From Minisyncoccia bacterium (GTDB lineage: Bacteria; Patescibacteriota; Minisyncoccia; Phycocordibacterales; Zambryskibacteraceae), in the NCBI GenBank assembly GCA_049651785.1, contig JBASCT010000025.1, positions 5,563 through 69,562 on the forward strand: a DNA stretch of 64,000 bases. The letters are read 5' to 3'. The position numbers were made by a program, and so were the translations under genes. Positions 1 to 61,313 of this stretch are shown one piece after another. Every line of letters begins with the position of its first letter. Within the stretch, counting starts at the first letter, position 1. Below the pieces are notes generated by a model, which saw only the letters and a program-made list of their open reading frames with translations, was not told the DNA's origin and did not search any database.

Positions 1-152
1 CCATCGGCGTTAAGACTTCCCACCTCTCCCTTGAGGACATGGCCTACCTTCTGAAGCGCTGTTCGCAGAGTTCCAACTTTTCCAAGACCTTTTTCGGCAG
101 TCTGAAAGTAAAAAATGGTTCGACCCGCTCACCACAAGATGAAAAAAGGTAA
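1..152 (+). CDS. 3' end of an upstream gene, unknown function, partial at the window edge; it overlaps the def start
   Basis: Open frame from position 3 to TAA at 150-152 with no homolog recognised. Contextual guess only: priA often precedes def-fmt. Confidence 0.25.
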   Translation, partial: IGVKTSHLSLEDMAYLLKRCSQSSNFSKTFFGSLKVKNGSTRSPQDEKR

Positions 153-1413
153 AATTCTCGATAAAGACGCACCCGTTTTAAGAAAGGTTGCGAAAGAAGT
201 TTCTCCTAAAGAAATCGGATTAAAGAAAACCCGAGAGATAATCGAGCGGATGAAAGACGCGCTCTACGGCGAGGAGGACGGAGTCGCCATTGCGGCGCCG
301 CAGCTTGGTGAGAGTTTGCGGATCTTTATGGTCCGGGGCGATGTCCTCTTTTTCGCCAAGGGCAAGAAGCCGCCGCCGGGCGAGAAGGTAGCGGATCTGG
401 TCTTTATAAACCCCGAGATTCTTAACTCCTCCAAGAAGAAGAAAAAAGTTGAAGAGGGCTGTCTCTCCATCCGCTGGCTTTACGGCAAAGTTTCCCGAAG
501 CGAGAAAATAACCATCGGCGCCTATAACAATAAGGGAGTCTGGGTAGAGCGGGGCGCCTCGGGACTTCTCGCCCAGATTTTCCAGCATGAGATAGACCAC
601 CTTGACGGCACCCTTTTCACAGACAAGGCCGAAGGTTTGAGAAACATCCCTCCCGCGAAGGAAGTGAAGTTCGCCTACTTCGGCTCATCGGAATTTTCAA
701 AATATGTCCTTGAAGAGCTTGAGGCTTTGCACTTCTCCCCCGCCTTAAATATTTCTTCGAGCAAGGAGCCCTTGCCGATTGAGGCGTTAAAGAAATTGGA
801 GGCGGACGTCTTCGTCGTCGCCTCCTTCGGGAAAATTCTGCCGAAAGAAATTCTCGAACTGCCAAAGCACGGGGTCATCAATGTCCACCCCTCTCTTCTG
901 CCGAAGCTCCGTGGCGCCTCACCGATCCAGGGCAGTATCCTTGGCGGCGCCGAGCCCGGGGTGACGATTATTAAAATGGACGAGCGAGTTGATCACGGTC
1001 CTATCCTTGCCCAGACCAAGGTCGAGATAGAGCCCTGGCCCGACCACTACGCCGCCGTCGAAGAGAAGCTCGGCCGTGCGGGCGGTCACGTCTTAGGACT
1101 CGTCCTGCCGAAGTGGCTCTCGGGAGAAATAGAGCCGAGAATCCAGAATGACGATAAAGCCACCTTCACAAAACTTATCAAAAAAGAGGACGGCCTTATC
1201 AGACCCGATGAGCCCGCGGAAGAAAGTCTCAGGAAAGTTTTTGCCTACAGCACTTGGCCCGGCGCCTACCTCATTTATAAAAACAAATTCGGCAAAGAAA
1301 TCAGAGTAATCGTGAAAGACGCCGAGATCAAAGAGGGGAAATTCGTGCCACTAAGAGTCGTGCCTGCCGGCAAGCGCGAGATGCTCTGGGTGGAGTTCTT
1401 GCGGGGCAACTAG
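115..1413 (+). CDS. def-fmt: Peptide deformylase fused in frame to methionyl-tRNA formyltransferase (Def-Fmt bifunctional protein)
   Basis: N-terminal ~185 aa carries Def motifs (GVAIAAPQLG, EGCLS, HEIDHLDG). The C-terminal part carries the Fmt N-domain (FGSSEF, VVASFGKILP, NVHPSLLPKLRGASPIQ). The 432 codons are uninterrupted. Confidence 0.8.
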   Translation: MVRPAHHKMKKGKILDKDAPVLRKVAKEVSPKEIGLKKTREIIERMKDALYGEEDGVAIAAPQLGESLRIFMVRGDVLFFAKGKKPPPGEKVADLVFINPEILNSSKKKKKVEEGCLSIRWLYGKVSRSEKITIGAYNNKGVWVERGASGLLAQIFQHEIDHLDGTLFTDKAEGLRNIPPAKEVKFAYFGSSEFSKYVLEELEALHFSPALNISSSKEPLPIEALKKLEADVFVVASFGKILPKEILELPKHGVINVHPSLLPKLRGASPIQGSILGGAEPGVTIIKMDERVDHGPILAQTKVEIEPWPDHYAAVEEKLGRAGGHVLGLVLPKWLSGEIEPRIQNDDKATFTKLIKKEDGLIRPDEPAEESLRKVFAYSTWPGAYLIYKNKFGKEIRVIVKDAEIKEGKFVPLRVVPAGKREMLWVEFLRGN

Positions 1414-2873: not shown

Positions 2874-3305
2874 TTATAGCAGTTCTAAAAGCCAAAAACT
2901 AAAAATGGTGCCCATAACAATCAGGGTTATAAGATGGTTCGAGGTACGAATGAACCATAACTTCCAAGGCTTTTTGCCAGTGAGAAAGTCACTTATGTTA
3001 AAAGGGATGGTGGCAATCCATCCCAAGAATCCACCTAGAATTCCGGCCACCACTCCTAGAGTTTCAAAACTGAGTATAAAAAATACCATGTAGAAATAAA
3101 AGATGGACGCAACGGTGAGTGAGGCGAGAAATTGAATTGCGTAGGCTTCTCCTATTGTCGTTTCTCTCTTTATCACATTCCTTGGATGGTGCCCCAGGAG
3201 AGCCGTCAATGTTTCCTTAAATAAAACCTCGCACCAGAAAAATCTAACCGCAACACCCGCAAGGGCCGCAACAAGCACTGGCAGAAAAGGTATGTCGAGG
3301 TCCAT
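2874..3305 (-). CDS. Small integral membrane protein, DUF1761-like; paralog of the next gene
   Basis: Four TM helices and an AYAIQFLASL motif. Tandem duplicate of the 3310..3732 gene. Confidence 0.5.
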   Translation of the reverse strand: MDLDIPFLPVLVAALAGVAVRFFWCEVLFKETLTALLGHHPRNVIKRETTIGEAYAIQFLASLTVASIFYFYMVFFILSFETLGVVAGILGGFLGWIATIPFNISDFLTGKKPWKLWFIRTSNHLITLIVMGTIFSFWLLELL

Positions 3306-3309
3306 GTTT

Positions 3310-3732
3310 TTATTTCCAAAGACTCAAGATGATTCCCATCACTATAAGAGATACAAGGTAGTGTGAGGCGTTGATATACCAGAGTTTCCAAGGTTTGTTC
3401 TCCCATAAAACCACGCCGAGACTAACGGGGGCGACAAAGCCGAGCCACATCCAAAAACCAGACGATGCGCCAGAAGTCCAGCCGGAAGAGTTCATATAGG
3501 ATGTTGCGAAGACCAAAACGTGCGAGAGGACGTATGCCATGACAAGAGAAGCGACAAATTGTATTGCGTAGGCTTTATTCGCAGCCATCTTCATTCCAGA
3601 CATAACCTCTGGAGCGTAGCCCATCATCGCCATCCACGGTTTTTTAAACAAAAGACCGTACCAGAGAAACCCCACCGCCATACTAGAGACGGCCGCCACA
3701 AGCACCGCCCAGTAATTTATGCCGATGTCCAT
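3310..3732 (-). CDS. Small integral membrane protein, DUF1761-like
   Basis: MDIGINYWAVLVAAVSSMAVGFLWYGLLFKKPW matches the DUF1761 pattern as I recall it. Confidence 0.5.
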   Translation of the reverse strand: MDIGINYWAVLVAAVSSMAVGFLWYGLLFKKPWMAMMGYAPEVMSGMKMAANKAYAIQFVASLVMAYVLSHVLVFATSYMNSSGWTSGASSGFWMWLGFVAPVSLGVVLWENKPWKLWYINASHYLVSLIVMGIILSLWK

Positions 3733-39043: not shown

Positions 39044-39095
39044 TATGACCGCAGTGCACTACAAAGTACCAGATTTTTTGGGCTTTATCAATTTG

Positions 39096-39166
39096 TGCCG
39101 GCAAATGGAATCGGACCATTGTTTGAGGCTTATGAGTCCTCCGTTCTACCATTGAACTATGCCGGC
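39096..39166 (-). tRNA. tRNA with CAU anticodon, elongator Met or Ile2 (lysidine), with an atypical T-loop
   Basis: GCCGGCA acceptor, loop CTCATAA, G1-C72 paired, T-loop TCCGATT (C55 in place of U), 31-39 A/G mismatch. Confidence 0.55.
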
Positions 39167-39231: not shown

Positions 39232-39305
39232 AGCGGGTTGGAGGAGTAGTACCTCGACAGGCTCATAACCTGTAGGCATCCGTGCAAATCGGATACCCGC
39301 AACCA
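39232..39305 (+). tRNA. Initiator-like tRNA-fMet(CAU)
   Basis: A1/A72 mismatch, A11:U24, U8, loop CTCATAA, CCA encoded, unusual T-loop TGCAAAT. Confidence 0.5.
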
Positions 39306-58973: not shown

Positions 58974-61313
58974 TTAGAACTTCAGCTCTTCCCAATCACT
59001 CCAATCGTTTCGCTCGCACCTGCCCCAATCGTACTTATCTTTCTGATTTATTTTCCACCTTCCATTTTTCTCTATCGCAATACCGCCAAAAAGTTTTTTG
59101 CCTTTCTTATTTTGCTCTTTGATATATTCCTGCAATTTTTCGGCTTTTGCTTTTGTGTATGTCGTTCCGTCGCGATCTCCGGCAGCCTTCGTTTCAAACA
59201 TTCCAATCTGTCCGTTGGCAAATTGCACGAGATAATCGGGGTAAAAAGTATGTATCACGCCTTCGGGATATTCATACTTTATACCAAAATAATCTTTCTT
59301 GTTTTCGCCGTTCTTCCACCACCAAACTATTTTCCCCGGATTCTCGTTCAAAAACTTTTCAAACTGCCTCTCTGGGTCTAGCCGGGTCGCGCTCAAATAA
59401 CATGGTTCATAAACATACTTTTTACCCTCCGCGATCTCATCCGCGTATTTGTTGAAAAAACTTTCCGGCGCAACATCAAATTCATACCATTGTTCGCTTT
59501 CCTCAACTCGTTTTTTTATCTCTTTTTCGCGAATTGTTTTATATGCTTCAATCGCGTCAGTCAAAATCGCCTCAAACTGCTTTCTGTTTCCATTGTGCAG
59601 GAAAATCATCTGCACGAGAATTGCTTCCTCCGGCCATTCTTTTGCGCCGAGATACTTCCTAAACCACGAATAAATCGCTGTCTTTACTTTCGGCACTGAT
59701 CGCTTAATGTTTTTGAATGAGCCAAGATTGTTTTTGATAGTTTGCTCAAACAATGCCTGTAAGTCGTTGCCTGCGATTGTAAGGCGGGCAAAATCTGCGG
59801 AGCTGATCTTTCCCTCAATTTCATCAAAACTTTTTCCCTCAATTTTAGCGTTAGCGATTATATCTTGCTGATATTTTGTGATATCAAGCACCATGCCCGC
59901 GCGCTCCATTTTTTCCGTATTTTGCGCAAACAAAGTGTGGTCTCCTTTCAAATCAAAATGTATGCAAGCCGTTCTCTCAAACACTGGAGTAAAACTTGAT
60001 GTAATGTCGCCGTAATCAGCGCGCGCCTTATAGTACGACACAAGTTTAATCGGCTTATACGCCGCCACACGGCCACTCTTGAGGTGTTTGATGATGTTAG
60101 GGTTATATTCTTCCTTTTTAACGATAATGCTTTGGACATTGGTATAGATATAGCCGACATTCAAAGGTTCGTTCGCATAGTGTTTCTGTTCGGGCATGCG
60201 CAAAATACGTCCGACGGTTTGGATTTCAAATGTCTCGCTGTGCGATTCGCGGAATTTCACCAAAATATGCGCGCGCGGACAATCCCAGCCGGTATCAATC
60301 GCTTGCTTGAAAATAAGAAACTCAATCTCATTGTCTAAATCTCTGACCCATTCATTTTTTGGGCCCAAGGCGGCCGACTTGTCGTCCGCCAGCCAAATCG
60401 CGAGCTTGCCATTTTTTTTGGTTATACCTTTGCGCGCCAAAAATTCCTTTACGGCTTTTATTTTGTCCTCTCCTGCTTCTGCTGTCGGTATTTGCACCAG
60501 CGCGAGCGGATTGACAATTGATTTCTCGGCTTCAAAAAGTTTCTTCAACTCCTTTCGTTTCTGATAAGCGGCTTCCAAAACCACTTCCTGCGAGTCGTTT
60601 TCGTCATCACTAATCTTGTCAATCCTATCGTTGATAACTAATTCTTTCTTTATCATGCCCTCGTCAATTACCTCTTTCGGCTCAATGAAAATAAATCCCG
60701 CCATACCGCGCGCCAAATCGCGCGGATCGGGTTGAATTTTTGGCGTCGCGCTCATTTCCAAAATAACATCGGCATTTATTTCCTCTCGTAATTCGTTAGT
60801 GCGTTCTGCTGTTGCTCCGATATGGCTTTCGTCAATAATCAAAATAACTTTTCGCTGTTCTCTCGTTTTCGCCATTACATCGCGAAAGTTTATTTTCTCG
60901 CCGTCCTTCATCAAAACATTTTTCCATTCGCCAGTTTCGCGGTCTTTACTTCGCAATTTTTCCCAATTTGCCACCACAACCTCGTTTCTGACAATTCGCT
61001 CCCGCCCGCCTGTAAATTCTTCCTCAACAAGCGAAACTCGCGGCGCGCCGCCAAAAAGTTCTTCCAAACTCCGCTTGCTTTGTAAATGCAAATCTCCCTT
61101 GCCGATACTTACCCACACAAAACATAAATCCTCATCAATCAGTTCTTTGATAATTTCTTCAATAAACTTGGCGGTCATTATCGTTTTACCACTTCCGGTA
61201 GGAGCTTGAAAAACGCAAACTTTTTTATTCCCTTCTTTTTTAAGCAAGGTTTTGACTGCGGCGATAAGTTCGCCAACCGCTGTTTCCTGATATTGTTTTA
61301 AGTTAATATTCAT
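58974..61313 (-). CDS. res: Type III restriction enzyme Res subunit (SF2 helicase/endonuclease)
   Basis: Walker A QAPTGSGKT, motif II IIDESH, helicase C region. Confidence 0.8.
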   Translation of the reverse strand: MNINLKQYQETAVGELIAAVKTLLKKEGNKKVCVFQAPTGSGKTIMTAKFIEEIIKELIDEDLCFVWVSIGKGDLHLQSKRSLEELFGGAPRVSLVEEEFTGGRERIVRNEVVVANWEKLRSKDRETGEWKNVLMKDGEKINFRDVMAKTREQRKVILIIDESHIGATAERTNELREEINADVILEMSATPKIQPDPRDLARGMAGFIFIEPKEVIDEGMIKKELVINDRIDKISDDENDSQEVVLEAAYQKRKELKKLFEAEKSIVNPLALVQIPTAEAGEDKIKAVKEFLARKGITKKNGKLAIWLADDKSAALGPKNEWVRDLDNEIEFLIFKQAIDTGWDCPRAHILVKFRESHSETFEIQTVGRILRMPEQKHYANEPLNVGYIYTNVQSIIVKKEEYNPNIIKHLKSGRVAAYKPIKLVSYYKARADYGDITSSFTPVFERTACIHFDLKGDHTLFAQNTEKMERAGMVLDITKYQQDIIANAKIEGKSFDEIEGKISSADFARLTIAGNDLQALFEQTIKNNLGSFKNIKRSVPKVKTAIYSWFRKYLGAKEWPEEAILVQMIFLHNGNRKQFEAILTDAIEAYKTIREKEIKKRVEESEQWYEFDVAPESFFNKYADEIAEGKKYVYEPCYLSATRLDPERQFEKFLNENPGKIVWWWKNGENKKDYFGIKYEYPEGVIHTFYPDYLVQFANGQIGMFETKAAGDRDGTTYTKAKAEKLQEYIKEQNKKGKKLFGGIAIEKNGRWKINQKDKYDWGRCERNDWSDWEELKF

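Follow-up and report, generated by a model that had tools for sequence, protein, structure and literature searches.

A fusion of the genes for peptide deformylase (def, product Def) and methionyl-tRNA formyltransferase (fmt, product Fmt) was described in Exiguobacterium (Bacillales) in a 2025 survey of peptide deformylases (PDFs), where the fused gene was shown to complement a def-fmt deletion in E. coli (PMC12690207). The same survey defines the three Def motifs as G-phi-G-phi-AAxQ, EGCxS and QHExDHLxG, and credits Exiguobacterium with a second PDF (PMC12690207). For the formyltransferase half the reference is E. coli Fmt, in which a 16-residue insertion loop with the conserved Arg42 docks on the initiator tRNA at its C1xA72 end, the conserved Arg of this loop being important for the enzyme (PMC13234167). 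Here we report a def-fmt fusion near the start of a 64-kb window (the whole stretch of DNA analysed) from a metagenome-assembled genome of a Zambryskibacteria-like lineage of the Paceibacteria (Patescibacteria, or candidate phyla radiation, CPR). We put the probability at roughly 80% that it is a genuine, conserved fusion encoding one polypeptide of about 424 aa, with an N-terminal metal-dependent Def and a C-terminal minimal Met-tRNA(fMet) Fmt. The kind of fusion is itself already published; the main oddity is an Fmt half that has lost the usual tRNA-reading loop.

In a HMMER search over 1.84 billion representatives (the best 150 clusters, at 50% identity, were classified), the Exiguobacterium fusion is P0251 (WP_021067074.1, 461 aa; UniRef "Multifunctional fusion protein"). 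Like the window protein, it carries Def first and Fmt second in one coding sequence (CDS); in both, the HExxH helix of Def is followed by a short linker, and all Def motifs and Fmt catalytic residues are present. The two proteins are 34% identical, and the gaps in their alignment fall exactly at the insertion loop and in the C-terminal domain: the Exiguobacterium Fmt half is a canonical, full-length enzyme of Bacillus type, matching 4iqf with 415 bits over residues 6-314, in which both the loop (SQPDKPVGRKRELKPTPVK) and a complete C-terminal domain are present, whereas the window Fmt is minimal. Because identity is at 34%, the Exiguobacterium Fmt half is of Bacillus type and unfused intermediates exist in the Paceibacteria, sequence comparison indicates two proteins of one kind that originated independently. 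Beyond the Exiguobacterium report, full-text literature searches gave no description of a Patescibacteria fusion or of a loop-less Fmt. The Patescibacteria fusions are widespread but under-annotated, their sequences being already public with precomputed Pfam domains.

One conserved reading frame for def and fmt

The gene and its two modules are laid out as follows:

139..1413, + strand: fused def-fmt CDS, 424 aa plus stop, identical to NCBI protein MGB3922105.1
139..669, + strand: peptide deformylase module (PF01327, TIGR00079), including the tail DKAEGLRNIPP and a linker of about five residues, AKEVK
670..1410, + strand: Met-tRNA formyltransferase module, about 247 aa, with a reduced N-terminal catalytic domain and a short C-terminal domain

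The original prediction, made from the sequence alone, had read this region as Def and Fmt encoded in one fused polypeptide over 432 uninterrupted codons, with a short Fmt part of about 245 aa. The list of open reading frames (ORFs) and the DNA of the window agree: 115..1413 (+) is a single stop-free ORF of exactly 432 codons, with its stop within these coordinates, and the Fmt part measures about 247 aa. The in-frame ATG at 115 gives the longest form of the ORF (432 aa). The start codon is likely the ATG at 139, predicting a protein of 424 aa: this is the length of the identical NCBI entry, and alignments to most homologues begin at this codon, covering 98% of the 432-aa query; residues are numbered here in the 424-aa form (N248, D285 and so on). 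Three Pfam domains fall in the one frame: Pep_deformylase (PF01327) at aa 13-175 (E 8.5e-39, 133.1 bits, cutoff 22.8), Formyl_trans_N (PF00551) at aa 216-327 (E 1.7e-29, 103.3 bits, cutoff 26.1; profile positions 66-177 of 181) and Formyl_trans_C (PF02911) at aa 355-406 (E 5e-5, 23.8 bits, cutoff 21.1; profile positions 2-48 of 100). Three such domains in one frame are not there by chance, and they bear out the fused polypeptide together with its fused homologues. NCBIfam TIGR00079 (peptide deformylase) is matched at 115.1 bits, above its cutoff of 103.95.

The sequence comes from a metagenome-assembled genome, and two close relatives (L044 and L059; the related loci L001-L080 are the top 80 of 514 in a tblastn-based scan of GTDB species genomes) have separate, overlapping genes, so that a 1-nt error could fuse them. 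An assembly or sequencing artefact, with a stop lost or a frame shifted where two separate genes meet, is nevertheless effectively refuted and retains almost no probability. The identical NCBI protein MGB3922105.1 ("MAG: peptide deformylase [Minisyncoccia bacterium]") lies on an 82.7-kb contig, and a 95%-identical variant from another, independent assembly has equal length, an identical junction and 418/424 positives. A look-up of the contigs of the protein by exact sequence returned no record. The sequencing error at the junction that the original prediction named as a possible refutation is contradicted by these two proteins. Both domains are present in 120/120 homologues listed (60-84% identity, 387-463 aa), which come from many studies and from NCBI, ENA, JGI and Logan assemblies. 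In nine GTDB species (L001-L009, 59-77% identity) def and fmt likewise form one stop-free ORF in the DNA, and their linkers differ in length by whole codons only. Relatives therefore do share the fusion, as had been proposed for checking. Separate genes, also anticipated, are indeed found in more distant relatives; throughout the clade of the window, however, the fusion is conserved and no isolated case.

Both halves are conserved across the 120 fused homologues. In their alignment EGCLS and HExDH are invariant in Def, as are N248, H250, PSxLP and D285 in Fmt. From the single ORF, this conservation and the intact motifs we infer that both activities have been retained, and the fused protein is probably bifunctional. 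Absent from the original prediction were the published precedent (Exiguobacterium, PMC12690207), the Def-tail nature of most of the linker, and the cause of the short Fmt.

Deformylase module and junction

All three Def motifs are found in the N-terminal module:

280..303, + strand: Def motif 1, GVAIAAPQ; against the canonical G-phi-G-phi-AAxQ, the third residue is Ala, replacing the second Gly
454..468, + strand: Def motif 2, EGCLS; the Cys is a metal ligand, and the motif is invariant in the 120 homologues
583..609, + strand: Def motif 3, QHEIDHLDG; supplies two His ligands of the metal and the catalytic Glu

Within motif 3, H150, E151, D153 and H154 are invariant in the 120 homologues. The Ala of motif 1 is found in 70 of the 76 Paceibacteria Defs classified, fused or not (five others are off-pattern and one has Gly). 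Around it, G48, A50, A52 and P54 are invariant in a 30-sequence alignment, and A50, A52 and P54 also in the 120-sequence alignment. The Def fold in the AlphaFold2 model matches 1zxz (E 2.6e-15, target TM 0.77), 1lme (target TM 0.91) and 4je6. The best sequence and structure matches in the PDB are PDF1A-type enzymes (Arabidopsis PDF1A, 1zxz; human mitochondrial PDF, 3g5k) and bacterial PDFs (1lme, 6caz), which resemble the module in fold and in the three motifs. It differs from them in that its C-terminus runs on into Fmt and in the motif 1 Ala typical of its lineage. By profile, motifs and fold the module is a peptide deformylase, and deformylase activity is predicted for it.

The original prediction placed a short linker, DKAEGLRNIPPAKEVK, between the two enzymes. 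That stretch was located at nt 622-669, but most of it is the conserved C-terminal tail of Def, the true linker being about five residues. The tail, of the form DKAxxxxxxPP, also ends the unfused Defs of relatives (e.g., "FIDKAKSLEELPP...") and forms a strand in the AlphaFold2 model (E165-169). Between the Def tail and Fmt strand beta1 (FAYF, 178-181) lie only about five residues (AKEVK), and the sequence of the fused protein at the Def/Fmt junction includes NIPPAKEVKFAYFGSSEFSK.

A GTG codon (Val176, nt 664-666) stands just before Fmt beta1, beside an AAGGAA, and the linker is short and Pro-rich; both features would suit an ORF that gives two products, with Fmt made by internal initiation or by cleavage in the linker. 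We consider this very unlikely. Shine-Dalgarno function needs a longer spacing to the start codon than the roughly 1 nt that separates AAGGAA from this GTG, and the position is not kept as Met/Val/Leu in the fused orthologues (VLK, DTK, NIK, LSF); on these two grounds an internal Fmt start at GTG 664 was rejected. There is also no sign of a cleavage site, and the Exiguobacterium fusion works as one CDS (PMC12690207). In the fused L001-L009 no conserved Met or Val occurs at the Fmt boundary, and Fmt would therefore be producible only as part of the fusion.

A formyltransferase module without the insertion loop

In the C-terminal module, catalytic and tRNA-binding parts can be aligned to E. coli Fmt on either side of a deletion:

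760..777, + strand: deletion site SKEPLP, aa 208-213; about 32 residues gone compared with unfused relatives
880..903, + strand: Fmt catalytic motif NVHPSLLP; Asn248/His250 correspond to E. coli Asn108/His110 (1fmt alignment)
991..993, + strand: Fmt catalytic Asp285, corresponding to E. coli Asp146 (1fmt alignment); invariant in the 120 homologues
1171..1410, + strand: Fmt linker KLIKKED and shortened C-terminal tRNA-binding domain (PF02911 positions 2-48 of 100)

Across the 120 homologues N248, H250, P251, S252, L254 and P255 do not vary. The basic linker KLIKKED and a C-terminal PAGKREM motif align to E. coli Fmt, and the C-terminal domain is modelled as three strands plus helices. Canonical Fmt is the best match of the module in both sequence (4iqf and 1fmt in the PDB) and structure (Foldseek on the model: 4iqf, E 8e-22; also 1fmt and 2fmt). 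With E. coli Fmt (1fmt/2fmt; TIGR00460) it has in common the Asn-His-Asp set, SLLP, a Rossmann-like N-domain, the basic linker and the C-terminal domain. In contrast to that enzyme, it has about 32 residues fewer, including the loop and the Arg42 equivalent, its C-terminal half is about 30 residues shorter, and it is joined to Def. From the NxH motif to the stop there are about 177 residues in fused and unfused Paceibacteria, versus about 208 in E. coli Fmt (counted from 1fmt numbering). The short C-terminal half is thus a lineage trait, because it is present in all Paceibacteria, fused or not.

Several observations weigh against the proposed fusion of a Def with a minimal Fmt. The Fmt module is without the insertion loop bearing the conserved Arg (a gap of about 32 residues in a MAFFT alignment of Fmt N-termini). 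TIGR00460 (fmt), although its best formyltransferase model, is matched at 160.6 bits, below the equivalog cutoff of 201.5. The AlphaFold2 model of the fused protein has a mean pLDDT (predicted local distance difference test) of 90.8 and a pTM (predicted template modelling score) of 0.65, and the latter suggests that the relative orientation of the Def and Fmt modules is undefined. Finally, the tblastn search for a second def or fmt, which found none in the 64-kb window, spans only those 64 kb of the genome.

The missing segment follows beta2 and comprises the insertion loop (PDKPxGR...), the next helix and one strand; at this place unfused relatives read PDKPKGRKLxLTPxxxKxWAxxxxIPVxQP. Alignment offsets of 41-42 residues against 1fmt and 4iqf support the gap, as do the cut-off Pfam and TIGR profile coverage of the Fmt N-part and the secondary structure of the AlphaFold2 model, which runs beta1-alpha1-beta2-alpha-beta with no element between. 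Some fused representatives are shorter still, with 56-57 residues from beta1 to NxH (among P0134, P0139, P0141, P0168, P0177 and P0234).

The presumed substrate of the module is encoded elsewhere in the window and is not part of the gene:

39232..39305, + strand: probable initiator tRNA, anticodon CAU

This tRNA is initiator-like, with an unpaired A1 x A72, G2:C71, C3:G70, G4:C69, A73, A11:U24 and an encoded CCA end; its anticodon stem (A29:U41, G30:C40, G31:C39) has two of the usual three G:C pairs. It carries the acceptor-stem determinants of Fmt as listed in PMC13234167 (a 1x72 mismatch, G2:C71, C3:G70 and A73), except that position 1 is A and not C. To look for covariation between loop presence and the initiator 1:72 bases, CAU tRNA genes were sought within 3 kb of def-fmt in L001-L060; there were none, a conserved tRNA-Asn being the only tRNA nearby. 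The gene at 39232-39305 (+) is one of two divergent CAU tRNA genes, the other being at 39095-39166 (-). Both have non-canonical T loops (UCCGAUU and UGCAAAU) in which position 55 carries C or G in place of U. GUUCGA or GUUCAA, the usual form, occurs in the four remaining tRNAs of the window.

The loss of about 32 residues with the loop, the TIGR00460 score below cutoff and a C-terminal domain that matches only half of its Pfam model would also fit an Fmt module that is inactive or repurposed, either a decaying remnant or an enzyme with another acceptor, leaving only Def functional; formylation is dispensable in some bacteria (PMC4745127). We regard this reading as unlikely. Decay is contradicted by the Asn, His, Asp, SLLP and many further Fmt positions that are invariant over 120 sequences differing by up to 40%, and the module still has its basic inter-domain linker and its C-terminal domain. 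By tree and synteny the module is orthologous to loop-bearing Fmts of sister lineages, and the enzymes it matches best, in structure as in sequence, are true Fmts rather than formyltransferases for sugars or GAR. Moreover, Def has no use in a cell that does not formylate, yet it is conserved alongside Fmt in one polypeptide, and an initiator tRNA with Fmt determinants is present. The module, then, has the Pfam domains, catalytic residues, orthology and synteny of an Fmt, and falls short in the equivalog score and the loop. The conserved Def, the invariant Fmt catalytic residues and the initiator-like tRNA in the window are consistent with continued formylation by the fused protein.

We tentatively suggest, as a possibility that is rather less than even, that the loop-less Fmt is the only formyltransferase of the cell and recognises the initiator tRNA in a different, minimal mode without the loop or its Arg; the same may hold for the loop-less Fmts of several other Patescibacteria lineages. 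Loop-free recognition could use the unusual purine-purine A1 x A72 mismatch of the initiator tRNA encoded in the window, the C-terminal domain alone or, in fused forms, the covalently attached Def. The recurrent loss of the loop in CPR bacteria offers natural minimal Fmts that could be used to test the need for the loop in initiator tRNA recognition.

Recurrent fusion, origin and genomic setting

Among the best 80 of the 514 loci, 12 are fused and 68 have separate def and fmt. A neighbour-joining tree of Def plus Fmt places the window and L001-L009 in one loop-less clade, whose sister is L080, with unfused, overlapping genes and the loop kept. Nested in or beside this clade are L044 and L059, which are loop-less and unfused, and where fmt begins within the 3' end of def but in a different frame. 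The def/fmt overlap in L044, L059 and L080 is 11-17 nt, in different frames, and in more distant relatives the fmt ATG often follows the def stop directly (TAA ATG). Where def and fmt abut or overlap in this way, one small mutation can fuse them. The unfused Paceibacteria genes (e.g., L010, L014, L019 and L080; loop-less L013, L016, L044 and L059) are orthologous to the halves of the window gene, in the same order, and share with it the DKAxxxxxxPP tail, the motif 1 Ala and the short C-terminal half of Fmt. They differ in having a stop (mostly TAA) and fmt's own ATG between the genes, and most keep the PDKPxGR loop.

Fusion also occurs outside this clade. L015 and L021 represent a separate event (the L015 ORF has 458 aa and retains the loop), and L032 another (446 aa, again with the loop); in the sisters of L032, namely L023, L037 and L038, no more than a few codons lie between a stop and the fmt ATG. 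By these comparisons, fusion arose at least three times in the Paceibacteria and independently in Exiguobacterium. In L015 (1095-2978) and L032 (1024-2958) the upstream gene encodes a protein of 627-644 aa with Cys-rich zinc-finger motifs, PriA-like by eye. The gene order priA-def-fmt is known from Firmicutes. If the proteins are PriA-like, this order would apply to L015 and L032; the clade of the window has instead mreB and tgt upstream, on the other strand.

Loop loss is an event separate from fusion, because it is also seen in unfused relatives; in the unfused L013 and L016 the loop was lost separately. The idea that fusion caused the loop loss or compensates for it was rejected: L013, L016, L044 and L059 are loop-less and unfused, and L015, L021, L032 and the Exiguobacterium protein are fused and loop-bearing. 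The best 150 clusters of the HMMER search comprise 39 fused proteins (32 with a full-length Fmt N-part, 7 short), 100 Fmt-only (11 short) and 9 Def-only; the 39/150 fused are existence counts and not frequencies, because the ranking favours fused proteins. A short N-part is present in 7/39 fused and 11/93 Fmt-only proteins of these best 150, with no association (Fisher p = 0.41). Loop loss and def-fmt fusion each appear several times independently in Patescibacteria.

In 64 of the 68 unfused loci def and fmt share a reading frame, and often nothing but the def stop lies between them (e.g., TAA ATG in L010, L028, L030, L033 and L038). Programmed read-through was considered as an explanation. 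The simpler cause is ranking bias, since a tblastn match can cross a single stop and so brings same-frame loci into the top 80 of 514; fmt also has its own ATG, and the stop is mostly TAA. The excess of same-frame pairs is probably this bias, although real enrichment or occasional read-through may contribute.

As proposed, the Fmt module would formylate Met on the initiator tRNA from 10-formyl-tetrahydrofolate and the Def module would strip the formyl group from nascent chains; substrate channelling is not expected, because the ribosome separates the two reactions. The origin was most likely neutral, in a compact genome in which def and fmt already overlapped or abutted, and would have required either that the stop codon was lost or an indel of 1-2 nt, which in an overlap of 11-17 nt would give exactly the fused frame seen. 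The fusion may since have been kept for obligatory 1:1 co-expression. The simplest view is that it is a side effect of overlapping genes in streamlined DNA. The locus is accordingly a clear example of repeated fusion of overlapping or abutting genes in streamlined genomes, with at least three events in the Paceibacteria in addition to those in Exiguobacterium and other Bacillota.

The naming of these proteins also deserves attention. NCBI calls the window protein and most of the listed homologues only "peptide deformylase", probably because the Fmt half scores below the TIGR00460 cutoff, and for the Exiguobacterium fusion the product name is "methionyl-tRNA formyltransferase" alone. Each of these names hides one of the two functions. 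Because the proteins are named only "peptide deformylase", metabolic reconstructions of CPR bacteria may wrongly score fmt, and hence N-formylation of the initiator Met, as absent. Def is an antibiotic target, and for this reason a naturally tethered Def-Fmt could serve as a compact reagent for study of the formylation cycle.

The window is ordinary chromosome, with rpoB/rpoC, sigma-70, dnaG, bipA, ligA, a hibernation factor, VanY and ClpP. A plus-strand frame running from its left edge to nt 150 was rejected as probably non-coding; the 300 nt upstream of def-fmt in L001 are intergenic, followed by mreB and tgt on the other strand. Downstream of def-fmt, HPF, VanY, two DUF1761 genes and tRNA-Asn are syntenic with L001. 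The DUF1761 genes encode tandem membrane-protein paralogues (2874-3305 and 3310-3732, both -) downstream of HPF/VanY, an arrangement kept in L001. Farther along, at 58974-63000 (-), a ResIII/SNF2-type helicase (779 aa) adjoins an N6/N4 DNA methylase (565 aa), and the two resemble a type III restriction-modification pair.

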